DNA from: Xylanibacter ruminicola 23
GTDB lineage: Bacteria; Bacteroidota; Bacteroidia; Bacteroidales; Bacteroidaceae
DNA: 32,000 nucleotides
NCBI RefSeq assembly: GCF_000025925.1
Contig: NC_014033.1
Coordinates: 1,320,001 to 1,352,000, forward strand
Reading direction: 5' to 3'
Below the pieces are notes generated by a model. It saw nothing but the letters and a program-made list of their open reading frames with translations. It was not told the origin of the DNA and searched no databases. A program made the translations under genes and the position numbers. Positions 339 to 24,746 of this stretch are shown here, piece by piece. The stretch's first letter is position 1; the number at the start of each line of letters is the position of its first letter.

Positions 339-344
339 CGTGCA

Positions 345-3847: not shown

Positions 3848-3857
3848 CCGTAATGCG

Positions 3858-6492: not shown

Positions 6493-6573
6493 TCCAAAAT
6501 TAATAAATAATTTTGGCACTAACCACACTAATCCCATTTATTTTATGAAAAATCGCGTAATTAGTGCCATAAA

Positions 6574-7851: not shown

Positions 7852-7885
7852 AGATTTTTAATAATTTGGTTGCAAAGATACGAAA

Positions 7886-7920
7886 AAATCCCAAAGCATG
7901 TTAATTCTGCCTTGGGATTT
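7886..7920 (-). terminator. Rho-independent terminator of the flavodoxin-like gene
   Basis: Arms AAATCCCAAAGC (7886-7897) and GCCTTGGGATTT (7909-7920). The single mismatch becomes a G-U pair on the minus-strand RNA. It is followed on the minus strand by a T-run (plus-strand aaaaa 7883-7887). Confidence 0.7.
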
Positions 7921-7936
7921 ATGATTTATTTATCGT

Positions 7937-8452: not shown

Positions 8453-8490
8453 AATCGTAATTGTTTAGTTATTATAATATTGTCGCAAAG

Positions 8491-8952: not shown

Positions 8953-9025
8953 CGTTTAAATTAATTAATTATTTAGCTAACTCTTTTTGCATCTCCAGTC
9001 CTATCTTGTTCCAATAAGGTAGGTG

Positions 9026-10255
9026 CTACTTTCGTCCCTTGAACGTATAACCAATACCTTCAACCGCTGTGCGGATGGCCTCTTCGGTGGCAGTACCTTT
9101 GATAGTAAGGGTGTTGGCAGATGCACTGGCCTTAGCTTTCTCAACGCCAGGCAAATCCTCAACGGCACGAACCACGGCAGCCTCGCAATGACTGCAATGC
9201 ATGTCCTCAACGCGATAGATGGTTACATCGGGGGCTAACGTTTTTTTGGTGGTAAACTTGCTAAAAAACTTCATCATAAGCGCAAATATAATTAATAATG
9301 TTAATACTGTGGCACAAACAATCTTGAACACACTTGGCATAGCCGATTCATTCATGCAACAAGCATCCTGAACGGCAACGGCAAAGTCGAGCCCCGTAGC
9401 ATTGAGCAGCAGGCCGAAGAGAACGGCAAAGCCTACGATGGTCATCAGATAAATCGATGTAAAACGGCGCCCCATCGACTTATGAACCACCAGGATTGAT
9501 GCGAGATTAACGGCAGGCCCTGCCATCAGCATCACTAATGCTGCACCAGGCGAGAGCCCCTTCATCATCAGCGCGGCTGCCACGGGGATGCTACCCGTAG
9601 AACAGATATACATCGGCACTGCAATGATCAGAATCACCAGCATCTGCAACAATGGCTGACTGCCGAAACTGAGGAAAAACTCATCAGGCACAGCCACCTG
9701 AATCAGCGCTGCTACTATCAGTCCGATAAGCAGTCGCAGACCGATGTCGCGAAGCATATCGTAATAGGCATATCGCAGAACACGCCAAATTCTGTTTCCA
9801 CTTTCCACCTCACACGAACAGTTGTCGATGCTGGAGATATCATCTTCGCGAACCAGTCGGTTCACCAGCAGTCCACCACAAACACCGGTGATAAGTGCAG
9901 CCACAGGACGGATAATGGCAAAGCCAAGTCCCATCAGCGAGAATGTGGCCAAAATGGAGTCGATACCCGTCTGTGGTGTGGCAATCAAGAACGAGGCAAT
10001 GGCTCCCTTCGAAGCCTTCTCGTTCCTCAAACCAATAGCAGTTGGGATTACTCCGCACGAACACAACGGCAGTGGCACACCTAACAGCGCCGCCCAAAGC
10101 ACCGAAAACTTATTGTTACGCGAAAGATAATTTGCATAAAACCTCTGCGGCACGAACACGTGCAGCACGCCTGCGATGAAGAATCCCAACAGCAGGTAGG
10201 GAGCCATCTCGCAAACTACATTCAAAAGCGATATAAAGAAACTCTGTAAATCCAT
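9026..10255 (-). CDS. Permease (DUF318/SO_0444-like metal efflux family) fused to a C-terminal heavy-metal-associated (HMA) domain
   Basis: 409 aa polytopic membrane protein with PLCSCGVIP and CSTGSIP motifs. C-terminal about 70 aa form a ferredoxin-like HMA domain with MHCSHCEAAV (M-x-C-x-x-C). Confidence 0.8.
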   Translation of the reverse strand: MDLQSFFISLLNVVCEMAPYLLLGFFIAGVLHVFVPQRFYANYLSRNNKFSVLWAALLGVPLPLCSCGVIPTAIGLRNEKASKGAIASFLIATPQTGIDSILATFSLMGLGFAIIRPVAALITGVCGGLLVNRLVREDDISSIDNCSCEVESGNRIWRVLRYAYYDMLRDIGLRLLIGLIVAALIQVAVPDEFFLSFGSQPLLQMLVILIIAVPMYICSTGSIPVAAALMMKGLSPGAALVMLMAGPAVNLASILVVHKSMGRRFTSIYLMTIVGFAVLFGLLLNATGLDFAVAVQDACCMNESAMPSVFKIVCATVLTLLIIFALMMKFFSKFTTKKTLAPDVTIYRVEDMHCSHCEAAVVRAVEDLPGVEKAKASASANTLTIKGTATEEAIRTAVEGIGYTFKGRK

Positions 10256-10276
10256 CTATCAATATTACGGAAAGTG

Positions 10277-11380
10277 CTATTCACTATAGTTATGATCCAC
10301 TACGACAACCACTTGCTGGTCGGGCACTAACGGCTGAAGTTCTGCGGTAAGCTGACTGATAAAGGCTGCCTCGTCGTGGACGGAGATATCAGGCACAACA
10401 TCTACAGACAGATACTTCCTTTTCTCTGAATAGTAGAAGCCATGCACCTGTACGATGTCCTTGTGGGCTGCAAGGGTCTGTGTCACCGTTGCCTGCAACT
10501 CGGCCCGCTTGTTATCGCCCGTAGCGATGGCATATACGCCAACAGTCATGATAATACCATGCTTCACATACATCTGCGTAGAAATCCGTCGTGTCAGTCC
10601 GTGAATCTCATGGGCTGTCATCGTATCATAAACGTTGATGTGCAGCGAACCAATCTTTACGTCTGGACCGTAGTTATGCAGTATCAGGTCGAAGACACCA
10701 TGAACTCCCTCAAAGTCTGCGACCTCCTTCTGAATCTGTTTGGCGAAATCTGCCGAAATGCTCGTTCCCAGCAGTTCGTTGACAGGCGAAGCCAGCATCT
10801 CGATACCAGCCTTGATAATCACAACCGAAATCAGTGCACCCAGAATACCATCCAGCGATACACCCCACAGCAGCATAACACCAGCCGAGATAAGCGTTGC
10901 CAGCGTGATAACGGCATCGAACAGCGCATCAGAGCCGGAGGCAATCAGCGCATCGCTCTTCAGTTGTTCGCCCTTCTTCTTCACATACTGGCCGAGGATG
11001 AGTTTTACCACAATGGCCACCACAATAACCACCAGTGTCGTCGTAGTGTATTCTGGCTCCGTAGGGTCGAAGATTTTCTTCACCGACTCGATGAGCGAGG
11101 TGATACCTGCCGACAGAACAATAACGGCAATGATGATGGCGCTGAAATACTCGATGCGGCCAAAACCAAAGGGATGCTTTCTGTCGGCAGGACGCTGCGA
11201 GAGCTTGGTGCCTACGATGGTGATGACACTCGACAGTGCATCGCTCAGATTGTTCACGGCATCCATCACAATAGCTACACTACTGGCCAGTATTCCTACA
11301 GCGGCCTTAAAGCCAGCCAACAGCACGTTGGCTACAATACCAATCCAACTGGTACGGATGATTTCTTGACTACGATCCAT
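10277..11380 (-). CDS. Cation diffusion facilitator (CDF) family transporter
   Basis: 367 aa. Six TM helices with the CDF signature around SVAIVMDAVNNLSDALSSVI. C-terminal cytoplasmic alpha/beta domain. Adjacent to the HMA-permease, suggesting a metal homeostasis operon. Confidence 0.9.
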   Translation of the reverse strand: MDRSQEIIRTSWIGIVANVLLAGFKAAVGILASSVAIVMDAVNNLSDALSSVITIVGTKLSQRPADRKHPFGFGRIEYFSAIIIAVIVLSAGITSLIESVKKIFDPTEPEYTTTTLVVIVVAIVVKLILGQYVKKKGEQLKSDALIASGSDALFDAVITLATLISAGVMLLWGVSLDGILGALISVVIIKAGIEMLASPVNELLGTSISADFAKQIQKEVADFEGVHGVFDLILHNYGPDVKIGSLHINVYDTMTAHEIHGLTRRISTQMYVKHGIIMTVGVYAIATGDNKRAELQATVTQTLAAHKDIVQVHGFYYSEKRKYLSVDVVPDISVHDEAAFISQLTAELQPLVPDQQVVVVVDHNYSE

Positions 11381-11391
11381 TGTATCTTGTA

Positions 11392-11958
11392 TTAAAGTCC
11401 AGTATGTGTGGGATTAATCTTTTTGATGATTCGGGCAGGATTACCGCCGACGACCACATTGTCAGGTACATCCTTTGTGACGACAGCACCAGCGGCAATG
11501 ACGGCATTCCTACCGATGGTTACGCCTGGACAGATGATGGCTCCGATACAGATCCATGCATTCTCTTTGATGGTCACCTGTCCGAAATGAAACAGGTTGT
11601 GACGATCATAGAGATCGTGATCCACCGTTGCAATCTTAACTTCGGGGCCAATCAGTACGTTGTCCTCTATCACCACCTTCCCAGGCGAGAGAATGGTGGC
11701 ACCTTTGTTGATAGTGACATTCTTGCCGATTGTCATCCGACATCCGCAGTCGCAATAGAATGGGGAGACGATAGCGACACTATCATCAATCTTGCACTGG
11801 AACAGTTCTTCCAACAGTCCCTTATAATCAGGATCAGTGGGCTTTTTGGCAGAGATTTTCAGGCACAGCTCATGACTTCTTATCATCTCACCCTCCACGT
11901 TGCGCATACGAGGGTCGTTCTTGTAGCCAGAACCCGTAGCATCTATGATATCAAACAT
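11392..11958 (-). CDS. Sugar O-acetyltransferase (maltose/galactoside O-acetyltransferase-like, left-handed beta-helix)
   Basis: 188 aa. Hexapeptide repeats (IGKNVTINKGATI, IGPEVKI, ICIGAIICPGVTIGRNAVIAAGAVV) and the C-terminal GGNPARIIKK typical of the Maa/LacA family. Minus-strand promoter TATATTTG near 11978-11985. Confidence 0.85.
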   Translation of the reverse strand: MFDIIDATGSGYKNDPRMRNVEGEMIRSHELCLKISAKKPTDPDYKGLLEELFQCKIDDSVAIVSPFYCDCGCRMTIGKNVTINKGATILSPGKVVIEDNVLIGPEVKIATVDHDLYDRHNLFHFGQVTIKENAWICIGAIICPGVTIGRNAVIAAGAVVTKDVPDNVVVGGNPARIIKKINPTHTGL

Positions 11959-12070
11959 ACCTTATTGTTTTTATTATTTGGCAAATATACGAATAAGTGA
12001 TAACAAAATGGTATTAATTAACATTATTTAGGATATGCCAGGTACCAGGTCCCTGACATATACGAGAAGA

Positions 12071-12105
12071 AAATCCCAAGGCAAAAACGCTATGCCTTGG
12101 GATTT
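12071..12105 (-). terminator. Rho-independent terminator of the amidase gene
   Basis: Perfect 13-bp stem: AAATCCCAAGGCA (12071-12083) with TGCCTTGGGATTT (12093-12105). The stem and flanks resemble the terminator at 7886-7920. Confidence 0.7.
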
Positions 12106-12117
12106 AATGATTTTTAT

Positions 12118-12543
12118 TTACTTGGGCTGAAGGTCGGCGTACTCCTGGGTTACGTTCTCGATGCACGGGCAGGCCTTTTGCGGATTAAGATCGTGGTGCC
12201 CCACGATAACCGCACGGGGATAGCGGCGATGCAAATCTGCCAGTAGTGTGCGCAGAGCCGCCTTCTGTTCCGGTGTACGCGTATCAGCGGGTTGTCCGCG
12301 GGCATTCAGTCCTCCTTCGTAGCACACACCGATGGAGTACTTGTTATGGTTCATGCAGTGAGCCCCAGCCAGCCATTCCGGTCTACCCTGCTCTATCTCT
12401 CCGTTACGACGGACCACGTAATGGTAGCCAATGCCGAGTTTAAAACCTCGCTGGCGATGCCATGTATCTATCTGGGCTGCCGATGAAGTCTGCAAGGGTT
12501 TCACTGCCGAACAATGAAGAACAATCATTGTTATCGACCGCAT
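12118..12543 (-). CDS. N-acetylmuramoyl-L-alanine amidase (Amidase_2/PGRP type)
   Basis: The ORF track starts at a GTG (12603). The first ATG (12541-12543) gives MRSITMIVLHCSAVKP..., the usual start of this family. Motifs GYHYVVRRNGEIEQGR and SIGVCYEGG. Confidence 0.85.
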   Translation of the reverse strand: MRSITMIVLHCSAVKPLQTSSAAQIDTWHRQRGFKLGIGYHYVVRRNGEIEQGRPEWLAGAHCMNHNKYSIGVCYEGGLNARGQPADTRTPEQKAALRTLLADLHRRYPRAVIVGHHDLNPQKACPCIENVTQEYADLQPK

Positions 12544-12659
12544 GACTGTACAGCAATAGTTCCCAGAACTGTTGTAATCACTGTTGCTGCAAATCGCAAC
12601 CACTTAGCTACTCTATTCCAATTTACTTTTATCATAAAATTACTACAAATTATTAATTA

Positions 12660-13135
12660 ATTATTTTTCCCAACCTCCTTAGTCCTCCTTATCTTAAGGA
12701 GTTTTCCATCACCCCCTAGCCCCCTCTTCATAAGATGGGGTCTCGACTCTTTTCCCCACCCCTTTCCCTATCCCAGGAAAAGGGGCTTTAGTTGATTCCG
12801 AGGGAAAACCCTCTCCATCAAAGTTTTGGTATGGCTCTCCAGCCTTTGCCCCTTCGGGGTTCGCCATATTTTGCTTAATGGGGGCCAGCCCCCAAACCCC
12901 TTATAATCTATACCATGTTCAAGCACCGAGGGTATTAGGGGCGAGCAGCCCCTATTAGACAATATAGGCCGAAGTCCCGGCCTGCCAAAACATAGCATGG
13001 ATTTGGGTTTCCCCAAATTCAGGATTTAAGTCCCTTGCCAAAGATTGGCGAGGGGTTTGGGGAGTGGTTTGAAGCCCTCCTTAGGATGAAGGAGGGTTGG
13101 GTGGTTGTGACCCCTGCAGGGGGTACCCTGCTAAC
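12660..13135. other. About 480-nt non-coding region densely packed with short GC-rich hairpins
   Basis: At least 10 independent 5-8 bp GC-rich inverted repeats. Examples: CTCCTTA/TAAGGAG 12685-12701, CCCCTTT/AAAGGGG 12760-12786, CCCC-ttc-GGGG 12849-12859, GGGGG-ccag-CCCCC 12880-12893, AGGGGC/GCCCCT about 12937-12953, GGCCG/CGGCC 12967-12982, TTTGGG/CCCAAA 13002-13017, CCCTCCTT/AAGGAGGG 13074-13095, CCCCTGCAGGGG 13111-13122. The only ORF (12768..13016) is low-complexity and overlaps the hairpins. Confidence 0.6.
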
Positions 13136-13714
13136 TTAATCACCAATAGGCTCGTGACTTGAGTTACCGCCTCCACCGGTATTACCACCTGAGGTATTAC
13201 CGCTGCCACCGGTATTGCCACCGCCATTACCAGTAGATGGTGATTCGCTCTCGGTGTTCATGGAGTTATCATGTGTCTCCTCGAACACCACATCCTTCAG
13301 CAGGGAGATGGCCGTAACATACTTCTGCTTAACGGTGCCATCCGTGCGCTTCTGCTGACCAACCACAACACGCTCTGTCTCAGGCTGGAACAGGATGCGA
13401 CGTGTAGTGATGGTTGAAGCCGAACACTCATCAGCCTTTGCCACACCGATGCTCGAGAAACCAACCTTCAGGATACCGATGCCCTCCAGCTTAATCTTCT
13501 GTCCCATCTCAAAGAAATGCTTCATGGCCTCGCCCAGCTCCTGCAGCACAGCCTTGATATCGCTCTTCTTAACCGAGGCCTGACGCTGGATAAAATCAGC
13601 AATCTCGTCGGTACCCACAAAATGGTTGTCGTAAACTGCAGTGGCAAAATACTTACCGTAAGCCTTCGCATTGGCGCGGTTGTTGTTCTTAAGTTTAATA
13701 AACTTCTGACTCAT
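13136..13714 (-). CDS. HU-family (Bacteroides-type histone-like) DNA-binding protein with G/N/T/S-rich C-terminal tail
   Basis: 192 aa. The N-terminal about 130 aa have the Bacteroidales HU-like pattern (YGKYFA..V....V..DEIADFI......VKKSDIKAVLQEL...). The tail is GNGGGNTGGSGNTSGGNTGGGGNSS. Minus-strand promoter TATCTTTG at 13923-13930 implies a leader of about 200 nt. Confidence 0.8.
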   Translation of the reverse strand: MSQKFIKLKNNNRANAKAYGKYFATAVYDNHFVGTDEIADFIQRQASVKKSDIKAVLQELGEAMKHFFEMGQKIKLEGIGILKVGFSSIGVAKADECSASTITTRRILFQPETERVVVGQQKRTDGTVKQKYVTAISLLKDVVFEETHDNSMNTESESPSTGNGGGNTGGSGNTSGGNTGGGGNSSHEPIGD

Positions 13715-14104
13715 TTTTAATGTTTAATCTTTAATGTTTAATGTTCTCGGCAGCCGAGGTAGGTTGTGGGTTGCTCAGATAGTCTGTGTGTGCTATCCGG
13801 ATAGTCTTTACCAGGTGTTCGGATAATCCCTATAGGGGTATGGAGATAATCTGAACGAGTGGTTCGTGACGTCTGAGCGAGGCATAAGTGCCATCCCCAC
13901 GGCTCATCTTGCTTACCGCTTACAAAGATACCACATTTCGGAGAGCGTTTTGTCTGCATATTCAGCACTATCCGTACAATCGGCAGATTCTGCATTAATT
14001 TAACATTCATTCAAATAAAATCGATTTTTTTCTTTGTTGCTATCATAATTAATCGTATATTTGCGCAATATAACCATCTTACTCTATTAATTATTTTACA
14101 ATCT

Positions 14105-15451
14105 ATGGTGACATTCTTGGTTATTTTACAACTGTTTATCGTATTGGCCCTTATATTTATCGGCGCCAGGGTTGGTGGAATCGGACTGGGCATCTACGGT
14201 ATGGTGGGTGTGTTCATACTCGTGTTTATCTTCGGCATGCATCCCGGCAAGGTACCCATTGATGTGATGCTGATCATAGCATCGGTAATTACGGCTACGG
14301 CGGCGCTGCAGGCTGCTGGTGGCTTGGATTACATGGTAGGATTGGCAGCCAGGTTCCTGCGTAAGCACCCTACACACATTACTTATTATGGTCCGCTCAC
14401 CACCTGGTTGTTCTGCTTGGTAGCAGGCACAGCCCATACCTCTTACTCGCTGCTGCCTATTATCTCGGAGATTGCCAAGAATTCTAAGATACGTCCGGAG
14501 CGCCCCATGACGGTGGCCACCATCGCGGCCTCGTTAGGTATCACAGGTTCGCCCATGTCGGCGGCTACGGCAGCTGTTATATCCACCGACCTGCTTGGCG
14601 GACAGGGCATAGAACTGAAGGATATCCTGCTGGTGTGTATCCCAGCCTCGCTGATAGCCATCCTGGTGGCTTCGTTTGTGCAGAACCGTGTGGGCAAGGA
14701 ACTTGAAGATGATCCCGAATACCAGCGCCGTGTACGTGAAGGACTGATTGACCCGGAAGCCGAAGCCATGGCGATGGCACAGATGGAGCAGAGTCCCAAT
14801 CCACGTGCCAAGTGGAGTGTGCTGGCATTCCTGTTGGGCGTTGTGCTAGTGATTGTTTTTGGTAGCGCTCCTTCGCTGCGTCCATCGTTCGAGGTTGACG
14901 GCGTGGTTACCCAGCTATCGATGCCTGAGACCATCGAGATACTGATGATGTCGATGGCAGCAGTGATTCTGCTGGTTGGTAAGGCCAGTGTGAAGCAGGC
15001 TGTGAGCGGCAATATATTCAGTGCAGGTATGAATGCCATGATAGCCATCTTTGGTATTGCCTGGATGGGCGACACCTTCTTTAATGGCAACCTGGAGTTC
15101 TTTAAGAGTCACATAGCCGACGTGGTAACACAGTATCCGTTCCTGTTCAGCGTGGCCCTGTTTATCATGAGTATCATGCTGTTCTCGCAGGCAGCCACGG
15201 TACGCACGCTCTTCCCGCTGGGTATTGGCTTGGGCATTCCGCCATTGGCACTCGTGGCTATGTTCCCCGCTGTCAACGGTTACTTCTTCTTCCCCAACTA
15301 TCCTACCGAGGTGGCAGCCATCAACTTTGATACCACGGGTACTACCCGTATCGGCAAGTACGTGCTTAACCACTCGTTCCAGCTTTCGGGCTTTATCACC
15401 ACTTTTGTGAGCATTGGCGTAGGCTATCTTATTATAACATTCCTATATTAA
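14105..15451 (+). CDS. dcuB: Anaerobic C4-dicarboxylate transporter, DcuA/DcuB family
   Basis: 448 aa. FIGARVGGIGLG, IRPERPM and FDTTGTTRIGKYVLNHSF match the Dcu family signatures, closest by eye to E. coli DcuB. Promoter TATATTTG upstream near 14056-14063. Confidence 0.9.
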   Translation: MVTFLVILQLFIVLALIFIGARVGGIGLGIYGMVGVFILVFIFGMHPGKVPIDVMLIIASVITATAALQAAGGLDYMVGLAARFLRKHPTHITYYGPLTTWLFCLVAGTAHTSYSLLPIISEIAKNSKIRPERPMTVATIAASLGITGSPMSAATAAVISTDLLGGQGIELKDILLVCIPASLIAILVASFVQNRVGKELEDDPEYQRRVREGLIDPEAEAMAMAQMEQSPNPRAKWSVLAFLLGVVLVIVFGSAPSLRPSFEVDGVVTQLSMPETIEILMMSMAAVILLVGKASVKQAVSGNIFSAGMNAMIAIFGIAWMGDTFFNGNLEFFKSHIADVVTQYPFLFSVALFIMSIMLFSQAATVRTLFPLGIGLGIPPLALVAMFPAVNGYFFFPNYPTEVAAINFDTTGTTRIGKYVLNHSFQLSGFITTFVSIGVGYLIITFLY

Positions 15452-15874: not shown

Positions 15875-18154
15875 TCACAGAGGCAGTCCAAGTTGCTGAT
15901 ATTCAGCCGCTTCGTCGTCATCCGCCTCTTTAAATTCAAAGTTAAAATCTTCGGAGGCAATATATACTTGCTGATGGTCGAGCGGGATTTCAACAACCTT
16001 AAAGAAGTTGCCATTACGCTTATGCATGCTTTCATATCCCAGTTCGAGCATAATATCCCCTATCTTACGATTTGAGAAAAAGTTATTATGCCTGCCATAG
16101 TTTAAAAACAGGTTTATCATCTGCGAACTCATCAATTGATAAGGTTCATTCTTCTTTGGCTTGCGCAAACGTATCACAATCATCTGCTCTTCGGGGCTGA
16201 TAACCCTGAAAGGCTCGTTAAGTTGCTTTACACGCTTCTCGTCGGCTTTCGAAAAGTAATACTTAAACCCCTCATAGTACTCCTTTTGTAGCTGAGCATA
16301 CAACTGTGCGTAATCGATGGTCCACTCAAACGGACTGTCAATCTCGCTTAACTTAAAGCAAAGCCATCGCCGGTTACCGGTTGCATCTGTCAATATCTGT
16401 TGCTCGTTGGTTGATGCGCATAGCGAGGCTAAACGTGGTTTCTCCTCACGTGCGCGACCATATACAGGGCGCTCTTTTATCTTATCGGCAGTAACCAATG
16501 CTTTCAATTTAGCCAGCTCCGTTCCCTCAAAAGCCGACACCTCCTCGAGCTCTATCACACAGTGCTCCTGCATAGCTATACGATCGTCTTTCTGCGATAC
16601 AGAGTTGGTGCGGTTCTCCATAAAATAGGATTGGAGCTGTGGTGGCAGCAGATGACGGAAGAACTCGGTTTTATACTTTCCCTGCGGACCAACGAGCGTA
16701 AAAATACAGTGATTCATTACACGGTCGTCGAGCCATGTGCCCACCGCAGCCACCATCCATTTATGAAAAGCCCAGTGCATGGCCTCCTGTGCCTCCTTGT
16801 CGGTCATATCCGGTGTGGCCGAAACAGCATGGATATGGTCGGATAGCTCTTTCACACGGTCGATACCATCCCACTCAGGTAGCAGCTTCATATATTGTCG
16901 GATGGGATGCACTTTCAGCGCAAAGTCGCTTTTATAAACAGCCCTCAGATGTTTCTCCTCTACACGCTTTCCTGTATCAAGTTCTATCTGATACATGCGG
17001 GTGTTTATCTCTACATCATCAACAGGTTGCCATTTGTCGGATGTTAATGGCGGCAACGAAGAAATCAGGTCATCATCATCATCCCCATCAGTTTCGGCGA
17101 TATCATCCCTCGAGCACCATAGCAAGGCGTTGGTTAATATATTAAAGCAGCACACGATACGTTCGGATAGCCATTTTCTTATTTCGGGCAGTGTCATCAG
17201 TACGTTACCGCGTGGTTTCTCCATCCCGGGCAGGCGCCAGGTGCCATGCAGTGCTTCCTTTTTATAGCAATGACTGATGGCCCTGTCGCGCTCTTTCTTT
17301 GTGTGGTCGCGCCACTCTACATCGGCAAACTTCACAAGCTCGTCTTTCGGCACACCGTAACGGTTAAACAGGTAAGCGGCATGCAGTATGTAATCGTGAT
17401 GGTGACCAGGCTCATAGCGTATCTGTTTCTGCGACAACTGCTGCTCGATATGTTGCCACGCCTCTTCAGCTTTTACCTCGAACGATTTAGCATCGTAAAC
17501 CTTACGGGGACGGCCGTGTTCCTGATGCTCGCAGTTCTGTTCCACTATCATATCGTCGGAAATAACGAAAGGTACGGCCTGCTCGTTAAAATACACATCG
17601 GGATCGCCAGCCAAACACGACAAGCGTGTAAAATCGCTGTTGGCCTTATCGTAAGGGTGCTGTGCCACGGCAGCCAGATACTCATTACCCTTGATAAAAG
17701 CGCCCTGCCACGAGGTATCATCGATACGTTTTCCACCCTCGCGCTCGTAACAATAGATGATGTGCAAACCTAATCCGCCTATCGAGCGATACATCAACAG
17801 TACATGCGGATCCTTGGAGAGCCGCTCGATGGCGGCCTCCAATTCTTCCACACTCTCAAAATGATCGATATCACACAGGGCAAGCCTCGTCCATCCACAG
17901 GCCTGCGCCGCACTATGTCCTAACCCACTAAAATTTACTGCCACACCAAAGGCAGGCTGCAGTTGCGATTTGATATAACTATCAGCCTGCTTTTTGCCCA
18001 TCGCTGCCATTGTTTTACGATAGCTAACGGTATTGGCGGCAACAATTTTATCGTAACGTATAAAGTGTACAATCTCATTTAGAGTTTTAAGTACGTTAGA
18101 GTAGCTTGTATGGTTAGCAAATAGTGATACCTTTAGTTTGTTAATATCCATCAT
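15875..18154 (-). CDS. VirE-N/primase-helicase protein (BT4734-like N-domain + VirE/VapE P-loop domain)
   Basis: 759 aa. The N-terminus has the Bacteroides VirE_N/primase-like region. The C-terminal half has Walker A GPQGKYKT and the NRRWLCF motif characteristic of the virulence-associated E (PF05272-like) family. Confidence 0.85.
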   Translation of the reverse strand: MMDINKLKVSLFANHTSYSNVLKTLNEIVHFIRYDKIVAANTVSYRKTMAAMGKKQADSYIKSQLQPAFGVAVNFSGLGHSAAQACGWTRLALCDIDHFESVEELEAAIERLSKDPHVLLMYRSIGGLGLHIIYCYEREGGKRIDDTSWQGAFIKGNEYLAAVAQHPYDKANSDFTRLSCLAGDPDVYFNEQAVPFVISDDMIVEQNCEHQEHGRPRKVYDAKSFEVKAEEAWQHIEQQLSQKQIRYEPGHHHDYILHAAYLFNRYGVPKDELVKFADVEWRDHTKKERDRAISHCYKKEALHGTWRLPGMEKPRGNVLMTLPEIRKWLSERIVCCFNILTNALLWCSRDDIAETDGDDDDDLISSLPPLTSDKWQPVDDVEINTRMYQIELDTGKRVEEKHLRAVYKSDFALKVHPIRQYMKLLPEWDGIDRVKELSDHIHAVSATPDMTDKEAQEAMHWAFHKWMVAAVGTWLDDRVMNHCIFTLVGPQGKYKTEFFRHLLPPQLQSYFMENRTNSVSQKDDRIAMQEHCVIELEEVSAFEGTELAKLKALVTADKIKERPVYGRAREEKPRLASLCASTNEQQILTDATGNRRWLCFKLSEIDSPFEWTIDYAQLYAQLQKEYYEGFKYYFSKADEKRVKQLNEPFRVISPEEQMIVIRLRKPKKNEPYQLMSSQMINLFLNYGRHNNFFSNRKIGDIMLELGYESMHKRNGNFFKVVEIPLDHQQVYIASEDFNFEFKEADDDEAAEYQQLGLPL

Positions 18155-19215: not shown

Positions 19216-21987
19216 ATGACCGACAAACAACAGTCAGCCGCCGCTGCAGCCTTTGCTGAGCGGTGGAGAGGCAGAGGGTATGAACGGGGTGAATCACAGT
19301 CATTCTGGATTGACCTCCTGAGCAACGTGTATGGAATCGATACACCTACCAATGGTTTTATCACTTTCGAAGACCATCAGATGGTGGATAGCTCAAACTT
19401 TATCGATGGTCGCATACCATCCACCAAGGTGCTTATCGAACAGAAATCACTGGGTAAGGATTTGCGTAAAGGCATCCACCAAAGCGATGGTTCGCTGCTT
19501 AATCCATTCCAGCAGGCACGCCGCTATGTGGTGAGTCTGCCTGTATCCGAACATCCACGATGGATTGTCACCTGCAACTTCTCAGAGTTTCTGGTTTACG
19601 ATATGGAGCAGCCCAATGGCGAACCCGAACAGATACTACTTGAGAATCTAGGAAAAGAATACTATCGCCTGCAGTTTTTGGTAGATGCAAAGAACGACCA
19701 CCTGCGTAAGGAGATGGAGGTATCGATGCAGGCAGGCGAAATAGTGGGTCGCATCTACGAGGCACTGCTCAAACAATATGATGATAACTCTACCGAGGCC
19801 CTGCGATGGCTAAACATCCTGTGTGTGCGCATCGTATTCTGCTTGTATGCCGAAGATGCAGGAATTTTCAGTCACGACCAATTCCATGATTTTCTGGTAA
19901 CTTACGAGGCCAAGGACCTTCGCCGTGCACTGCGCGATTTGTTCGAGGTTCTAAATACCCCTAAAGAGCAACGCAGCAAATACCTGCAGGCAGAACTGGC
20001 TGCATTCCCATACACTAATGGCGGACTGTTTGCTGAAACCATCGAGATACCGCAGTTTACCGATGAGCTGAAGCAGACACTGCTGCAGAATGCCAGTCTG
20101 GATTTTGACTGGAGCGAAATCTCCCCCACTATATTTGGTGCCGTATTTGAGAGTACGCTCAATCCTGAGACGCGTCGCAGTGGTGGTATGCACTACACCT
20201 CGATAGAGAATATCCATAAGGTTATCGATCCATTGTTCTTGAACGACCTACGTGCTGAACTCGATGAAATATTGGATGAGAAAGTTGAGAAGCAACGCGT
20301 TCGAAAACTCGATGCCTATCAAGACAAGTTAGCATCGCTCACCTTCCTGGATCCTGCCTGCGGCTCAGGTAACTTCCTGACCGAAACCTACCTGAGTTTG
20401 CGCCGATTAGAGAACGAGGCTATCCGTTCTAAATACCACGACCAAACCATGATAGGTGCATTTATGAACCCCATCAAAGTGAGCATCCACCAATTTTATG
20501 GTATCGAGATTAACGACTTTGCTGTAACCGTAGCCACAACAGCTTTATGGATCAGCGAGGCTCAGATGATGGCTGAAACAGAGAAAATAGTAACCTTTGA
20601 AGATAACTTTCTGCCTTTAAAAAGCTACTCAAATATCCACGAAGGCAATGCCCTCCGCACCGATTGGGAAACCGTAGTACCCAAATCCCACCTTACTTAT
20701 ATAATAGGTAACCCACCGTTTGTGGGAGCTAATATAATGAATGATAATCAAAGAGCTGATATAAGGTCCATTTTTGGTAGTAAATGGAAGAACATCGGTG
20801 AAATGGACTATGTAACAGGATGGTACTTGAAGGCAACTCAAATGATGCATGGAACAGATATACGTACGGCTTTAGTTTCGACAAATAGCATATCACAAGG
20901 AGAACAAGTTGCCAATCTATGGAAACCACTCTTTGAAGAAGGTGTTCACATAGACTTTGCCCATCGCACATTTCGCTGGGATAGTGAAGCATCACTTAAA
21001 GCACATGTTCACTGCGTAATTATAGGATTTAGCTGCACGAACGATAAACATACAATGACCATTTACGACAATGCAAAGGAACATAAAGCATCAAACATTA
21101 ATGCATATTTGATGGATGCCCCAAATGTATTTGTCGAGAGTAAGAGCAAACCCTTATGTAGGGTACCTTCTATTCGTAAAGGCAATCAACCTACTGATGG
21201 TGGTAATCTTATAATAGAAGCAGCTGATCTTGAAAACTTTCTTGCTTGTGAACCAAAATCAAGAAAATTTATAAAACGCCTAATTGGATCAAAAGAATAC
21301 ATAAACAATAAAGCAAGATACTGTCTTTGGCTTAAAGAAGCAACACCTGCAGAATTAAGGCAGATGCCAACAGTTCTTAACCGCATAGAAGGCGTGCGGA
21401 AAATGCGAGAATCAAGTAGTGACGAAGCTACTCGCCGTCTTGCCAATTATCCTCACTTATTCCGTGAGACGAACAACCCTGAAACGTACATCGTAGTTCC
21501 CAGCGTCTCTTCTGAGCGTCGTCGTTATGTTCCAATGGGATTTCTTACCAAAGACACCATTCCTACCAACCTCGTTTTAATTATACCTGATGCAACTTTA
21601 TATCATTTCGGTATTCTTGAAAGTAATGTTCATATGGCTTGGATGAGAGCTGTATGTGGACGATTAGAAATGCGATATCGATATTCCAAGGATGTTGTTT
21701 ACAACAACTTCCCCTGGCCTACTCCAACAGAAGAACAAAAAGAAAAGATAGAGCAAACGGCCCAGGCTATCTTAGATGCCCGTGCCCTCTACCCCGACTC
21801 TTCTTTGGCCGACCTCTACGACGAGCTAACCATGCCCGTTGAACTCCGCAAAGCCCACCAAGAGAACGACCGCGCCGTCATGGCAGCTTATGGTTTCCCC
21901 ATCAAGACCACGACCGAAAGCCAGTGTGTAGCCGAGCTGTTCAAACTATATCAAGAACTTACAAACAAAAAACCAATAACGATATGA
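19216..21987 (+). CDS. Type IIL/IIG single-chain restriction-modification enzyme, MmeI family (endonuclease + gamma-class N6-adenine methyltransferase + TRD)
   Basis: 923 aa (MmeI is about 919 aa). The N-terminus AAFAERWRGRGYERGESQSFWIDLL is typical of the family. PD-(D/E)xK-like motif FIDGRIPSTKVLIEQK (D-x10-E-x-K). MTase motif I LDPACGSGNFL lies upstream of motif IV IIGNPPFVG. Long C-terminal TRD/helical region. Confidence 0.85.
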   Translation: MTDKQQSAAAAAFAERWRGRGYERGESQSFWIDLLSNVYGIDTPTNGFITFEDHQMVDSSNFIDGRIPSTKVLIEQKSLGKDLRKGIHQSDGSLLNPFQQARRYVVSLPVSEHPRWIVTCNFSEFLVYDMEQPNGEPEQILLENLGKEYYRLQFLVDAKNDHLRKEMEVSMQAGEIVGRIYEALLKQYDDNSTEALRWLNILCVRIVFCLYAEDAGIFSHDQFHDFLVTYEAKDLRRALRDLFEVLNTPKEQRSKYLQAELAAFPYTNGGLFAETIEIPQFTDELKQTLLQNASLDFDWSEISPTIFGAVFESTLNPETRRSGGMHYTSIENIHKVIDPLFLNDLRAELDEILDEKVEKQRVRKLDAYQDKLASLTFLDPACGSGNFLTETYLSLRRLENEAIRSKYHDQTMIGAFMNPIKVSIHQFYGIEINDFAVTVATTALWISEAQMMAETEKIVTFEDNFLPLKSYSNIHEGNALRTDWETVVPKSHLTYIIGNPPFVGANIMNDNQRADIRSIFGSKWKNIGEMDYVTGWYLKATQMMHGTDIRTALVSTNSISQGEQVANLWKPLFEEGVHIDFAHRTFRWDSEASLKAHVHCVIIGFSCTNDKHTMTIYDNAKEHKASNINAYLMDAPNVFVESKSKPLCRVPSIRKGNQPTDGGNLIIEAADLENFLACEPKSRKFIKRLIGSKEYINNKARYCLWLKEATPAELRQMPTVLNRIEGVRKMRESSSDEATRRLANYPHLFRETNNPETYIVVPSVSSERRRYVPMGFLTKDTIPTNLVLIIPDATLYHFGILESNVHMAWMRAVCGRLEMRYRYSKDVVYNNFPWPTPTEEQKEKIEQTAQAILDARALYPDSSLADLYDELTMPVELRKAHQENDRAVMAAYGFPIKTTTESQCVAELFKLYQELTNKKPITI

Positions 21988-22022
21988 TATAAAGCCATCA
22001 ATAATAAAAAAACAGGAAATTA

Positions 22023-22054
22023 TTTGGAAGTTTCAAAATATCTTCCTATCTTTG
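22023..22054 (+). promoter_or_regulatory. Promoter of sRNA copy A
   Basis: TTTG 22023-22026, 20-nt spacer, TATCTTTG 22047-22054. The spacer contains the palindrome GGAAG (22026-22030) / CTTCC (22042-22046). Confidence 0.7.
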
Positions 22055-22059
22055 CAGCG

Positions 22060-22190
22060 TGAAAGGTGGAACCAAGTAGAGCCACGATGTGCGGAACGGT
22101 GGCATCTGTGTGATGATGAGCAATTCGACCTTGCCGCTTGGTTTCATAAACATAGCGCCCATCACTCAATCGAGGGATGGGCGTTTTCTA
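22060..22190 (+). ncRNA. Structured sRNA, copy A (cloverleaf/tRNA-like hand fold), unclassified family
   Basis: Starts about 6 nt after the -7 box. Ends at a terminator: CGCCCATC 22156-22163 with GATGGGCG 22176-22183, followed by TTTT. About 95% identical over the core to copy B, apart from a variable hairpin and compensatory terminator changes. Closing helix ACCAAGT 22071-22077 with GCTTGGT 22136-22142. Inner hairpins GCCAC/GTGGC (22081-22085 with 22099-22103) and CATC-tgtgt-GATG (22103-22115). A third hairpin, GCAA-TTCGACC-TTGC (22120-22134), has a T-loop-like heptaloop. Confidence 0.65.
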
Positions 22191-22638
22191 TTTTCACATA
22201 TCGCTTTCCATTAAATTCCTTCTTATCTATACGACGTGTTGCCGTAATGAAGTTTACAAGCTTTACCTGTTCGCGATTTACTTTCATTTTATAGTTCGGA
22301 TGAATGATGAATTTGGAAACTTCGTCGGTATAGATGAAGCATTCGCCATCGTAGTATAGATCCATCTTAAATCGGCTTTTGGGAAAACGCACAAGTTCCT
22401 CAGCTGAAACAACCAGTCCCTTGGCACCTTTTGAGGCACGCATGCAATGCTGTAACTGTTTAGCGCTCATATATAATTGCTCGCAAGCCAACTTTATGCC
22501 ATTGTTCTGAGCAAACTGCACCATTCTCTGTTCCACATCACCGATACTAAACGGCTGTATAGCAGAAAAACCTTTCTGCTCTATATCAATCAAAACAGCT
22601 GTGATCTGTTCTTCTATCGTTGGTTTATCTGATTCCAT
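22162..22638 (-). CDS. Hypothetical protein (158 aa), convergent with and overlapping the terminator of sRNA copy A
   Basis: ATG at 22636-22638. Own minus-strand promoter TATCTTTG at 22663-22670. The last 7 sense codons plus the stop lie inside the sRNA terminator hairpin. No family recognised by eye. Confidence 0.6.
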   Translation of the reverse strand: MESDKPTIEEQITAVLIDIEQKGFSAIQPFSIGDVEQRMVQFAQNNGIKLACEQLYMSAKQLQHCMRASKGAKGLVVSAEELVRFPKSRFKMDLYYDGECFIYTDEVSKFIIHPNYKMKVNREQVKLVNFITATRRIDKKEFNGKRYVKIENAHPSIE

Positions 22639-22804
22639 ATACTTTCTTAAGCAAATCGCCTACAAAGATAAGACTTTATTTTAAACCCAACAAGCATATA
22701 GGCAAAAAACAAGAAAAAAATCCACGATGTGCGGTGCTCGTCCCAGACTTCCGAAATATCATCGAAGGTCGCAATAAGTTGGTCTTCTTCATGAGGATCA
22801 CATT

Positions 22805-22845
22805 CCCCCTAAAGCGCATCTCTTTCTTAGGGAATAATGAATAAT
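22805..22845 (+). repeat. Intergenic 40-nt repeat, copy R1 (CCCCC-TAAAGCGCATCT-n-TTCTTAGGGAATAATGAATAA)
   Basis: One of three near-identical copies (22805-22845, 24028-24067, 24506-24545), all in the same orientation. It contains the internal inverted repeat CCCTAA...TTAGGG. Stop codons in R2 and R3 exclude a conserved reading frame. Confidence 0.75.
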
Positions 22846-22847
22846 AA

Positions 22848-22879
22848 AGAAGCAGGGCATTTAACTGCCCTGCTTTCTT
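22848..22879. terminator. Bidirectional terminator hairpin after the 330-aa gene
   Basis: AGAAGCAGGGCA-tttaac-TGCCCTGCTTTCT with T-rich tracts on both strands. It lies 5 nt downstream of the 22884 stop. A homologous hairpin is at 24071-24102. Confidence 0.7.
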
Positions 22880-23876: not shown

Positions 23877-24027
23877 AATTTGGTTTATTTTTATTTAGTA
23901 ACTTATGTATTTGTAATTGCGCTTGCAAAGGTACTAAAAGTTTTTTAAACTCAGCATTAAATAAGAAAAAATATATCCTAAAATAGGACATGTTTTTTAG
24001 TCACCTACATCTCTTCATTAAGAGCTT

Positions 24028-24067
24028 CCCCCTTAAACACATCTAGTTCTTAGGGAATAATGAATAA
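24028..24067 (+). repeat. Intergenic 40-nt repeat, copy R2
   Basis: CCCCCTTAAACACATCTAGTTCTTAGGGAATAATGAATAA, followed as in R1 by a homologous terminator hairpin. Confidence 0.75.
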
Positions 24068-24070
24068 AAA

Positions 24071-24102
24071 AGAAGCAGGACAGTAAAATACCCTGCTTTC
24101 TT
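24071..24102. terminator. Terminator hairpin homologous to 22848-22879
   Basis: AGAAGCAGGACAgtaaaaTACCCTGCTTTCT, followed by TGTTTT. It lies downstream of the 69-aa gene. Confidence 0.6.
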
Positions 24103-24392: not shown

Positions 24393-24505
24393 AATTGTAT
24401 GTATTATTTGAATTTGGGTGCTAATATAAGGATTTATTTTATATAAACAAAGTAATTATTCAAAAAAATGACAATAATCGAGAGTTAACCCTCCTGATAG
24501 AAACT

Positions 24506-24545
24506 CCCCCTTAAGCGCATCTTGTTCTTAGGGAATAATGAATAA
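24506..24545 (+). repeat. Intergenic 40-nt repeat, copy R3
   Basis: CCCCCTTAAGCGCATCTTGTTCTTAGGGAATAATGAATAA. It lies directly upstream of the promoter of sRNA copy B. This copy has no terminator hairpin. Confidence 0.75.
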
Positions 24546-24566
24546 AAGCATTTTTCTTTAAAAATA

Positions 24567-24598
24567 TTTGGAACTTTCAGAAAGAGTTCCTATCTTTG
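24567..24598 (+). promoter_or_regulatory. Promoter of sRNA copy B
   Basis: TTTG 24567-24570, 20-nt spacer, TATCTTTG 24591-24598. Spacer palindrome GGAAC (24570-24574) / GTTCC (24586-24590), which is the compensated version of the copy A palindrome. Confidence 0.7.
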
Positions 24599-24603
24599 CA
24601 GCG

Positions 24604-24745
24604 TGAAAGGTGGAACCAAGTAGAGCCACGATGTGCGGAACGGTGGCATGGCTGCAGCAATGCAGAGATGATGAGCAATTCGACCTTGCCGCTTGGTTTC
24701 ATAAGCATAGCGACCATCACTTGTTTGAGTGGTGGTCGTTTTTAT
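24604..24745 (+). ncRNA. Structured sRNA, copy B
   Basis: Same core as copy A (24604-24650 and 24667-24710). The variable arm is replaced by CTGCA-GCAA-TGCAG (24652-24665, with a GNRA loop). Terminator CGACCATCACT 24711-24721 with AGTGGTGGTCG 24728-24738, followed by TTTTT. Confidence 0.65.
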
Positions 24746-24746
24746 T

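Follow-up and report, generated by a model that had tools for sequence, protein, structure and literature searches.

The antitoxin RNAs of the Bacillus subtilis type I pairs txpA/RatA and bsrG/SR4 are convergent with their toxin genes and overlap them at the 3' end, the toxins being small and hydrophobic and the antisense overlap long. Type III antitoxins are composed of tandem repeats that precede the toxin gene on the same strand; their processing is carried out by the endoribonuclease toxin (PMC5086642, and in part general knowledge of the field). In the MuF polymorphic toxins of temperate phages, which belong to a head-internal type of protein, the toxin domain is located at the C-terminus and is followed by an immunity gene; the known immunity factors are proteins, and recognisable toxin domains are found in only approximately one third of the MuF C-terminal extensions (PMC5576092). 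The abiF motif RNA is a structured RNA encoded beside a protein gene and associated with defence or phages (10.1101/2025.04.15.648962).

The window analysed here, a stretch of 32,000 nucleotides of Xylanibacter ruminicola 23, contains two copies of a structured RNA gene, copy A (approximately 22059-22190) and copy B (approximately 24603-24746), both on the forward strand and each with its own promoter and terminator (Table 1). This RNA is not a free-standing regulator but forms a conserved two-gene module together with a convergent gene for a 158-aa protein. Copy A represents the intact module; copy B is an orphan, its protein gene having been lost by deletion.

Similar to the type III systems ToxIN, CptIN and TenpIN, the module combines a protein with a dedicated structured RNA, although neutralisation by direct binding is here only the proposed reading; the likeness to these systems, which are used in anti-phage defence, extends to the location on mobile elements and to the tolerance of orphan or excess antitoxin. 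Unlike them, the RNA is a single-copy four-way junction that is convergent with and downstream of the protein gene and has its own promoter. Tandem Repeats Finder detected no tandem repeats in either RNA gene, and a repeat finder recovered the two dispersed copies only. The 158-aa protein could not be placed in the ToxN/AbiQ, CptN or TenpN families, having no match in Pfam, NCBIfam, PHROG or PADLOC and no fold match in the PDB. The convergent layout, the overlapping 3' ends and the strong promoter of the RNA are shared with the type I pairs, but the overlap comprises 0-30 nt of unconserved sequence, the RNA core is structured and conserved, and the protein is globular and much larger than type I toxins (<60 aa). 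As in the MuF toxin-immunity modules (PMC5576092), the domain can be found at a MuF C-terminus with a dedicated gene directly following it; this gene, however, is a convergent RNA gene instead of a small immunity ORF, and the domain is uncharacterised and mostly stand-alone. Finally, the abiF motif and the HEARO/omega RNAs are likewise conserved structured RNAs that mobile elements carry in genetic linkage with a single protein family, but they are located upstream of or overlapping their gene on the same strand and are represented in Rfam, whereas the RNA described here is convergent and has no Rfam match.

Table 1. Coordinates of the features of the RNA-protein module and its relics, in positions of the window.
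Feature	Position	Strand	Description
Promoter, RNA copy A	22023-22054	+	-33 TTTG 22023-22026, -7 TATCTTTG 22047-22054; read from sequence
Structured core, RNA copy A	22059-22152	+	Single-sequence fold, covariance model (97.9 bits), pair counts
P1, copy A	22061-22077 / 22136-22152	+	
J1/2, copy A	22078-22080	+	AGA
P2, copy A	22081-22085 / 22099-22103	+	Loop L2 GAUGUGCGGAACG, 22086-22098
P3 (short), copy A	22104-22106 / 22112-22114	+	AUC-UGUGU-GAU, 22104-22114
J3/4, copy A	22115-22119	+	GAUGA
P4, copy A	22120-22123 / 22131-22134	+	T-loop-like L4 UUCGACC, 22124-22130
Intrinsic terminator, copy A	22155-22190	+	Hairpin 22155-22183 and U-tract; fold and sequence
Partner protein gene, 158 aa	22162-22638	-	ORF; convergent with and abutting RNA copy A
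Candidate -7 box of the 158-aa gene's own promoter	22663-22670	-	TATCTTTG, read from sequence; in repeat D4, kept beside copy B
Relic of a third, decayed RNA copy	22722-22734	+	Exact 13-mer CCACGAUGUGCGG
Promoter, RNA copy B	24567-24598	+	TTTG 24567-24570, TATCTTTG 24591-24598
Structured core, RNA copy B (long-P3 subtype)	24603-24708	+	Fold z = -4.1, covariance model (113.5 bits), pair counts
P1, copy B	24605-24621 / 24691-24707	+	
P2, copy B	24625-24629 / 24643-24647	+	L2 24630-24642
P3, copy B	24648-24669	+	GCAA loop 24657-24660; CUGCA-GCAA-UGCAG 24652-24665
J3/4, copy B	24670-24674	+	
P4, copy B	24675-24678 / 24686-24689	+	L4 24679-24685
Intrinsic terminator, copy B	24710-24748	+	14-pair stem, then T-run
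Remnant of the copy B partner gene	24750-24835	-	Promoter and first ~11 homologous codons kept; ATG 24794-24792; ~15-codon ORF left

Copies A and B were confirmed as paralogous genes for one structured non-coding RNA, located where the original prediction had placed them. Pairwise alignment and the repeat finder (families D2/D5) aligned them in a block of 89 nt with 92% identity (22017-22105 and 24561-24649) and a block of 76 nt with 88% identity (22112-22187 and 24667-24742), separated by an 11-nt indel, and the two-block core pattern had two matches in the window versus none expected. A covariance model scored copy A at 97.9 bits and copy B at 113.5 bits, the next best match in the window being 16 bits. 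Both copies carry the predicted common promoter (TTTG and TATCTTTG), which we take to match the Bacteroidetes consensus; TAnnTTTG was present upstream in 68 of 75 distinct homologue regions, in 61 of these at the same distance. Judging from these signals, A and B are probably independently transcribed, with a core of approximately 100 nt that would reach approximately 130-145 nt with the terminator; the transcription start of copy A is a position inferred from the sequence. The terminator of copy A overlaps the final codons of the convergent 158-aa gene.

No Rfam 15 match was obtained at gathering scores over the whole window, and at E<=10 the RNA regions alone gave only chance matches of 8-21 bits (C/D-box snoRNAs, isrD, trpB motif), consistent with the initial impression of an unrecognised family; the divergent homologues had no Rfam match at E<=1. 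The RNA had also been judged by eye to be neither tRNA nor tmRNA: ARAGORN, applied to the window and to six loci with homologues, called neither type of gene, and no tRNA or tmRNA model of Rfam matched even at E<=10. Of a cloverleaf with a 7-bp acceptor stem, a 7-nt anticodon loop and a T-arm, the RNA recalls only the order of the arms and, by one hairpin, the T-arm. Literature searches returned no description of this RNA or of the 158-aa protein.

The RNA is a four-way junction of helices P1 to P4. P1 is a long closing helix, P2 bears a conserved 13-nt loop containing GG, P3 varies freely in length and sequence, and P4 bears a T-loop-type heptaloop (UUCRANN); among homologues, the junction strands and two loops, one of which is the heptaloop, are near-invariant. 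Conservation at the level of nucleotides and structure, as originally proposed, is borne out by compensatory changes in all four helices: both-sided, helix-preserving changes occur at 23 of 35 pairs in a set of 42 sequences and at 29 of 33 pairs in a diverse set of 15 homologues. None of 500 shuffles matched the observed values in either set, and control structures with slid pairing partners scored far lower in both. RNAalifold independently recovered P1, P2 and P4; the extra pairs that it proposed within L2 were dropped, as the divergent clade lacks them. The strand of the RNA is fixed by its many G-U pairs, including those at six P1 positions.

P3 distinguishes two module subtypes, short P3 and long P3, represented by A and B, respectively. 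The internal arm of A had been read as CATC-tgtgt-GATG; the hairpin itself was recovered (AUC-UGUGU-GAU), but the leading C belongs to P2, while the longer GCAA-capped arm of B was found just as described. Likewise, the difference noticed between the terminator stems (C22158-G22181 in A, A24713-T24736 in B) is correct in sequence and folds, but it reflects ordinary terminator turnover, the terminator sequence being variable among homologues, and is not part of the conserved structure. The argument that length differences shift the reading frame holds across the homologues, whose core-pattern matches are 42, 47, 51, 53, 54 and 57-60 nt long: because the P3 indels are not multiples of three, an ORF conserved across the variable arm is impossible.

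The layout resembles a tRNA cloverleaf without anticodon loop and CCA end, in which L2 and L4 may interact as an elbow. With tRNA and tRNA-like RNAs (the tRNA-like domain of tmRNA, the bacterial Y-RNA-like YrlA, viral tRNA-like structures) it shares the four-way junction and the order of the arms, a last arm with a 7-nt UUCRANN T-loop (GCGG-UUCAAAU-CCGU in the prophage locus L296), a GG-containing loop similar to the D-loop (in the divergent clade UAUGGUAAAG) and a 5-nt 'variable loop'. Unlike in tRNA, the closing helix spans 12-17 bp and ends in neither a 3' overhang nor CCA, the 'anticodon' arm forms a closed hairpin capped by a tri-, tetra- or pentaloop, and the P2 loop is 12-14 nt long. 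Two other resemblances were rejected: a hammerhead-like core, prompted by CUGAUGAG in L001 and L178, lacks a GAAA strand after P4 and an Rfam match, and a C/D-box or kink-turn reading of GAUGAUGA rests only on the 8-13-bit chance matches, the divergent clade having GUGUA at this place.

The RNA was found in approximately 76 genome loci of rumen Prevotella/Xylanibacter/Bacteroidales, in prophages and in one phage head-gene module, and several genomes carry two or more copies. A plasmid collection gave no match, and IMG/VR contained one module only (L001, identical to L292) and none of the divergent type; three matches of the genome scan (L141, L168 and L190) were discarded as chance matches inside GC-rich coding sequence. 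Recurrent neighbours of the module are restriction-modification, GmrSD, SNF2/PLD, WYL and VapE genes, and in the window MmeI and a Schlafen/AlbA_2 protein; the RNA-protein pair has no other conserved neighbour.

Approximately 1000 homologues of the 158-aa protein, all unnamed, were found, and a representative library held 294 clusters of the family, most members of which, including the protein of the window, are stand-alone and 150-190 aa long. The protein is mildly basic (pI 8.7), and its AlphaFold2 model (pLDDT 89) is a confident globular alpha/beta fold, for which Foldseek found no match in the PDB and a profile search no match to solved structures. Foldseek did match the model with a 'minor capsid' protein of a gut phage and with an end segment of ~1000-aa 'nuclease' proteins. 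The window protein has no N-terminal MuF (SPP1 gp7-like) domain, but the same domain forms the C-terminal extension of some MuF/SPP1-gp7-like phage head proteins encoded right after the portal gene: among the 150 representatives listed of the 294 clusters, at least four (P0314, P0360, P0364 and P0368) have the MuF N-domain, match PHROG head-morphogenesis families with E as low as 1e-65 and show a GWHPxC(R/M)C motif. In two MuF fusions (L329 and L330), where the domain occupies the toxin position, it is also followed by the RNA; conversely, 25 phage loci with the MuF N-domain and without this C-domain had no RNA, the best match being an 18.9-bit hairpin.

At approximately 95 related protein-gene sites, the RNA was convergent (tail-to-tail) with the protein domain wherever there was room to look. 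When 80 metagenome loci were fetched by the protein alone, the covariance model located the RNA in 76, on the opposite strand and starting no more than approximately 40 nt from where the protein match ended; in the other four the contig ended less than 50 nt past the gene. The same arrangement was found in divergent relatives, namely the prophages L296-L299 and L301, and in L293-L295, L300, L302 and L303. Across four different genomic settings the protein was never seen without the RNA where there was room downstream, the RNA was downstream and convergent in all loci examined, and the 3' ends of RNA and coding sequence abutted or overlapped by 0-25 nt in every clade examined. The junctions and loops of the RNA are near-invariant across partner proteins that are only 50-55% identical. 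The P3 subtype tracks the C-terminal subtype of the protein (64 and 32 concordant cases versus 2 exceptions). A direct contact between P3 and the protein C-terminus, suggested by this pattern, was dropped as insecure: L178, L144 and L192 do not follow the pattern, and physical linkage of sites approximately 100 bp apart suffices as explanation.

In the opposite direction the association is looser. RNA-anchored genome loci with enough flank (n=70) contained an intact protein gene in 34 cases, a truncated remnant in 21 and none in 15; both anchored samples required an intact motif, and a decayed RNA beside an intact protein could be slightly under-sampled. Copy B is one of the truncated-partner loci: approximately 400 bp of the gene body were deleted, 24760-24835 is 89% identical to 22604-22679 (repeat D4), and tblastn recovered only residues 1-12 of the partner protein.

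For this RNA we tentatively favour, with a probability slightly short of even, a role as protein-binding antidote to a toxin-like effector. On its own the 158-aa protein would be harmful, and an abundant, stable RNA would bind it directly via the conserved junction and the L2/L4 'elbow' and keep it inactive, either as a type III-like RNA antitoxin or as an RNA 'immunity' factor. The module would then be an addiction or abortive-infection element of defence islands and prophages, it would also protect the producing cell where a phage head protein includes the domain, and copy B would be an orphan antidote left after loss of the protein gene. One-sided decay, with 34 of the 70 RNA loci retaining an intact protein gene, counts for this reading since such asymmetry is expected of toxin and antidote, and the location of the domain at the MuF C-terminal position, where toxin domains sit, points to a toxin-like protein, as do the Foldseek matches. 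The strict linkage of the RNA to the protein domain and the recurrent neighbours of the module also count for it. However, one-sided decay would also be expected from an RNA function independent of the protein or from protein supplied in trans by copies elsewhere, the gene arrangement differs from that of known type III systems in being convergent and in having an RNA that lacks repeats and does not precede the protein gene, and no nuclease or other enzymatic signature was detected in the protein. The broader proposal of a tRNA-shaped RNA as the dedicated antidote ('RNA immunity') of a new toxin/effector domain, circulating among defence islands, prophages and MuF head proteins, is put forward with somewhat more reserve, with a probability of perhaps a third; the RNA would then possibly act as a decoy for a tRNA-directed activity. 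If the RNA is an antidote, RNA-based neutralisation following type III logic would extend to a new RNA architecture, gene layout and toxin family, a new architectural class of RNA antitoxin would be established, and toxin-antitoxin biology would be linked to the polymorphic effectors borne in phage heads, for which only protein immunity is known. To our knowledge, no other polymorphic-toxin-type domain has an RNA instead of a protein as its neutralising factor, and this one would be the first.

Unlikely, but to be taken seriously, is that the RNA, instead of inhibiting the domain, serves it as obligate cofactor, cargo or substrate in a working ribonucleoprotein; it could have the MuF head protein as chaperone or packaging partner and be delivered along with the phage DNA, or, being tRNA-shaped, be modified by the domain. 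The strict co-occurrence, which holds even in the phage head-gene module beside the portal gene, would suit such a complex, as would the highly conserved RNA core, the mildly basic protein and the head-internal nature of MuF-type proteins (PMC5576092). Against an obligate complex, however, about half of the RNA genes stand without protein, which would be surprising unless the protein works in trans. Stand-alone modules are located in defence islands without phage structural genes, and the RNA offers no single-stranded segment of variable sequence as a 'guide', its sole variable part being a closed hairpin.

Control of the mRNA by convergent transcription and 3'-end complementarity, as type I-like antisense RNA or transcriptional interference with the fold serving stability only, appears improbable. 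Such control would benefit from 3' ends that abut or overlap in every clade and, since no strong minus-strand terminator is evident past the coding sequence at copy A, the mRNA may read through the antisense of the RNA gene. Pairing, however, is automatic for overlapping genes and leaves the helix-preserving double changes unexplained; the overlap, formed by terminator or U-tract, is the least conserved part, and near-invariant junctions and loops, which a purely antisense role would not require, argue for more than such a role. Base-pairing of the RNA core with the 5' region of the mRNA was rejected, no excess complementarity being found over 16 loci (mean z = 0.17); moreover, the protein is soluble and not a small membrane peptide, and orphan RNA genes stay intact without any mRNA to regulate.

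Slightly less credible still is that mobile elements carry the RNA for a trans-acting or housekeeping-like role independent of the protein, for instance as a tRNA-elbow mimic directed against a host or phage factor, the only tie between the two genes being a common bidirectional terminator slot. The 36 of 70 loci without intact partner that keep promoter, core and terminator intact would be in line with such an RNA, as would the genomes with two or more copies, but it would not account for a protein never found without the RNA in four genomic settings, for the absence of the RNA from MuF loci without the domain, or for the matching of P3 and protein subtypes, although the latter could be explained by physical linkage.

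If the antidote reading holds, the module would provide a well-supported structured RNA class absent from Rfam 15, with four covarying helices and ultra-conserved junctions and loops, tied to an uncharacterised protein domain that has approximately 300 sequence clusters and no match to a known fold. It would also show that annotation pipelines miss this partner of approximately 1000 'hypothetical' proteins, and the simple pair of an RNA of approximately 100 nt and a 158-aa protein would lend itself to work on structure and defence in Bacteroidales of the rumen and gut.

A DNA-level element (recombination or attachment site, operator) or a small coding gene is very improbable: rearranged relics do break within the L2 sequence (22722-22734 in the window, and L199) and the P2 arms form an inverted repeat, but the compensatory changes including G-U pairs are specific to RNA and to one strand, promoter and terminator are conserved, the relic is confined to close relatives, and a small coding gene is contradicted by the P3 indels. 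Site-specific recombination in L2 was rejected, since a simple deletion, located at a short shared ATG, accounts for the junction seen in L199. The 13-mer of the relic has three exact matches in the window, and four versus 0.45 expected when two mismatches are allowed; upstream of the protein gene it was also considered as a conserved operator or target, a reading that was dropped because it occurs only in the window, L138 and L002, which are close relatives. In L002 the same relic still bears the 3' end of the RNA and its terminator.

The two paralogous stretches proposed in the original prediction are present where claimed: alignment and a repeat search returned two blocks common to both, one of 89 nt (22017-22105 and 24561-24649, 92% identity) and one of 76 nt (22112-22187 and 24667-24742, 88% identity), separated by an 11-nt indel. 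The two-block core pattern matched twice in the window with zero matches expected, and a covariance model scored the two copies (A and B) at 97.9 and 113.5 bits, the next best match in the window reaching 16 bits. The common promoter was likewise recovered, with TTTG at -33 and TATCTTTG at -7 in each copy; judged by these motifs, the upstream part is a putative Bacteroidetes-type promoter, and of 75 distinct homologues 68 have TAnnTTTG upstream, 61 of them with the same spacing. Both copies terminate in a G+C-rich hairpin with a T-run after it, and the compensated terminator pair (C22158-G22181 in A versus A24713-T24736 in B) had been read correctly. The window gave no match to Rfam 15 at gathering scores and only chance matches of 8-21 bits at E<=10, even when the ~140-nt RNAs were searched alone; divergent homologues had no Rfam match either, no description of the RNA was found in the literature, and ARAGORN found no tRNA or tmRNA, so that the family is indeed an unrecognised one.

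Single-sequence folds and comparative data identify the RNA as a four-way junction of helices P1 to P4, copies A and B representing two module subtypes with a short and a long P3, respectively. Among 42 distinct homologues, 23 of 35 pairs carry changes on both sides, a number reached by none of 500 shuffles, and sliding the 3' partners by 1-3 columns lowers the paired fraction from 87% to ~40%. For 15 deliberately diverse sequences, which take in prophage and MuF-associated homologues (MuF: SPP1-gp7-like phage minor head protein) and whose alignment was fitted to the covariance model, a bias in favour of structure, 29 of 33 pairs show double changes and 92% of cells are paired; this set adds double changes in P2 (A-U to G-C, C-G to G-C) and in all four P4 pairs. 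P1, P2 and P4 were recovered independently by RNAalifold on a plain MAFFT alignment. The + strand is the transcribed one, since the frequent G-U pairs of P1 are C-A mismatches on the other strand, and no ORF is conservable across the RNA, since the P3 length differences are not multiples of three. Substitutions in homologues thus preserve the helices rather than break them, which bears out the proposed conservation at the nucleotide and structure level rather than the protein level, and a structured RNA rather than a small ORF. The structured RNA is under strong purifying selection.

Features of the RNA genes, their product and the surrounding island (positions in the window)
Feature	Position	Strand	Remarks
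VapE/BT4734-type primase	15875-18154	-	
MmeI-family type IIG restriction-modification enzyme	19216-21987	+	complete
Promoter, copy A	TTTG 22023-26; TATCTTTG 22047-54	+	putative, read from sequence
P1	copy A 22061-22077 / 22136-22152	+	long closing helix
J1/2			junction strand AGA
P2			GCCAC/GUGGC; 13-nt loop L2 = GAUGUGCGGAACG
P3, short form			variable arm AUC-UGUGU-GAU
P3, long form			internal loop and 5-7 more pairs; loop usually GNRA-type
J3/4			junction strand GAUGA, 5 nt
P4			GCAA/UUGC; heptaloop L4 = UUCGACC
P4-to-P1 link			1-2 nucleotides back into P1
Partner gene	22162-22638	-	158-aa ORF, convergent with copy A; last codons run into RNA terminator
Orphan gene, 330 aa	22884-23876	-	between RNA copies
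Orphan gene, 69 aa	24183-24392	-	between RNA copies
Promoter, copy B	TTTG 24567-70; TATCTTTG 24591-98	+	putative, read from sequence
Partner remnant, copy B	24750-24835	-	promoter and first ~11 codons; 89% identity to 22604-22679
Schlafen/AlbA_2-domain protein, 1244 aa	24961-28695	+	

The RNA is strictly coupled genetically, in four settings, to one protein domain, that of the partner gene. The partner family comprises ~1000 close homologues, none of them named, and 294 clusters at 50% identity in a library of 1.84 billion proteins; the protein had no match in Pfam, NCBIfam, PHROG or PADLOC, and no sequence relative among solved structures. Its AlphaFold2 model is confident (pLDDT 89) and found no fold match in the PDB, the only structural neighbours being uncharacterised gut-phage proteins, a 'minor capsid protein' and the end segment of ~1000-aa phage 'nuclease' proteins. 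When 80 metagenome loci were fetched via the partner protein alone, RNA sequence playing no part, 76 of them had a covariance-model match to the RNA on the other strand, its start at most ~40 nt from where the protein match ends (71 essentially full-length with 94-117 bits, five cut by the contig end); in the remaining four the contig ends <50 nt after the partner gene. L2 is variable in this sample at one position only (GAUGUG[C/A/U/G]GGAACG), the junctions and L4 are invariant, and no conserved neighbour other than the RNA and its partner was found in the loci compared. The partner of a short-P3 RNA ends in ..EFNGKRY.., that of a long-P3 RNA in ..EFTLPKY.. (64 and 32 cases versus two exceptions), a correspondence that is blurred in deeper lineages and could be explained by physical linkage. 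The 3' ends of the RNA and partner genes abut or overlap by 0-25 nt in all clades, and therefore both sequences constrain each other; the U-rich 3' tail of the RNA is the reverse complement of Lys codons in the K-rich C-terminal tail of the partner (window 22162-22190 and homologous loci L293, L296, L298, L301, L329 and L330).

With a degenerate core pattern, 81 loci were found in a one-genome-per-species collection, three being chance matches; the genuine ones come from genomes of rumen Prevotella, Xylanibacter ruminicola, Prevotellaceae or Bacteroidales, and several of these genomes have two copies. Similarity to loci L199, L133 and L138 places the window in this group, and it is identical to none of the loci fetched. 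The arrangement is kept in divergent relatives, all of which have a TAnnTTTG promoter of their own: five loci in prophages (L296-L299, L301) carry the module of RNA and partner gene among terminase, PAPS-reductase, WYL and integrase genes, and six more divergent loci (L293-L295, L300, L302, L303) show the same layout. Their helices are rewritten, with the AGA junction, GAUGU..GG..AA.G in L2 and the UUCRANN heptaloop kept; P4/L4 of L296 (GCGG-UUCAAAU-CCGU) looks like a tRNA T-arm. The RNA resembles tRNA in its arm order, 5-nt J3/4, T-loop-type L4 and GG-containing L2, but is not recognised as one by any tRNA membership test. These features suggest a tRNA-like L-shape with an 'elbow', on which basis one might speculate that the RNA acts as a decoy for a tRNA-directed activity.

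In four representatives of the partner family (P0314, P0360, P0364 and P0368) the domain forms the C-terminus of a larger protein, whose N-terminal part has matches in phage families for head morphogenesis and minor head proteins, as well as in the N-part of Bxa, a Bacteroides phage toxin. All four show a GWHPxC(R/M)C motif and are MuF/SPP1-gp7-type proteins; the P0364 gene lies directly 3' of an SPP1-type portal gene, and its phage, occurring in 502 blocks of the collection's index, seems widespread. The C-terminal extension of MuF proteins is a site of polymorphic toxin domains, with the immunity gene next to it, and recognisable toxins make up only about a third of such extensions (PMC5576092); by sequence comparison, the partner protein is homologous to this effector position. 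Both fusion loci fetched (L329 and L330) contain a divergent RNA copy (30.5 and 32.6 bits, E about 1e-6 to 1e-7), convergent with the fusion gene and overlapping its last ~8 codons. No RNA was found in 25 control phage loci having a homologous MuF N-domain and another C-terminus (best match, an 18.9-bit hairpin), and therefore the RNA follows the domain, not the gene context. By eye, the GWHPxC motif of P0314 (501 aa) seems to be interrupted by an intein-like insertion (GWHPCCYSSDSQVLT...HN...).

Decay affects the protein, not the RNA. For 70 genome loci anchored on the RNA and having 620 nt or more of sequence downstream of it, the partner is intact in 34, present as truncated or disrupted remnants in 21 and absent in 15. 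Hence no protein gene is seen that lacks the RNA, while RNA genes kept in the absence of the protein are frequent. The remnant next to copy B has lost ~400 bp of gene body. A third-copy RNA relic (22716-22790), limited to close relatives, holds at 22722-22734 an exact copy of the 13-mer CCACGATGTGCGG, with degenerate sequence after it, and its counterpart in locus L002 retains the RNA 3' end and terminator.

From the selection on the RNA, its coupling to the domain, the protein-only decay and the homology to the MuF effector position, we infer a module function in which the partner protein would be harmful alone and the RNA would be its antidote, acting by direct binding via the conserved junction and L2/L4 surfaces. 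[quoted passage not shown] A type III-like pair is the closest resemblance of the module, but the RNA architecture and the layout are new; membership in a known type I or type III family, or among tRNAs, was rejected, and as far as can be told this two-gene RNA-protein module is uncatalogued. We regard as rather unlikely an obligate ribonucleoprotein in which the RNA serves as cofactor, cargo or substrate: such a complex is compatible with the phage head setting but hard to reconcile with the frequent loss of the protein. The abutting 3' ends would suit a type I-like antisense or transcriptional-interference pair, which is nevertheless improbable in view of the invariant loops, the helix-preserving changes and the orphan RNAs, no complementarity to the 5' region of the mRNA having been found. 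Domain-specific co-occurrence and the MuF control make it quite improbable that the RNA is independent and merely has the terminator slot in common with the partner gene, and RNA-specific covariation leaves a DNA site or small ORF instead of an RNA scarcely credible.

Positions 1-15451 of the window hold ordinary chromosomal genes, and an island from ~15.8 to 28.7 kb contains the primase, the MmeI-family enzyme, the RNA genes and the Schlafen/AlbA_2 protein, the two RNA genes standing among three orphan minus-strand genes (158, 330 and 69 aa); no integrase was seen inside the window. Recurrent neighbours elsewhere are methyltransferases, GmrSD-HNH, PLD-SNF2 helicase, WYL and HTH regulators and VapE primases, and the module neighbourhoods are defence islands on integrative elements. 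The 330- and 69-aa proteins have no family match except a weak one of the former to PADLOC PDC-S22 (E = 0.004); a homologue of the 330-aa protein adjoins RNA copies in loci L199 and L133. A ~43-nt repeat (TCCCCCTTAAGCGCATCT..TTCTTAGGGAATAATGAATAA) occurs three times (22804-22846, 24027-24069 and 24505-24547), each 110-150 nt upstream of one of the orphan genes and two of them adjoined by bidirectional terminator hairpins (22849-22876, 24073-24098), a layout that looks like a cassette array; in L199 an RNA pseudogene truncated at its 5' end is fused to the repeat. At locus L201 (2940-2995) the RNA gene begins ~20 nt after a tRNA-3'-end-like sequence (GGTTCGAATCC...), an arrangement that islands inserted at tRNA genes would typically show; no tRNA was called by ARAGORN in this 8-kb locus. 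Unrelated to the RNA module, a C39-peptidase ABC exporter followed by a VKOR-thioredoxin fusion (345-3913, minus strand) forms a bacteriocin-export-like pair.
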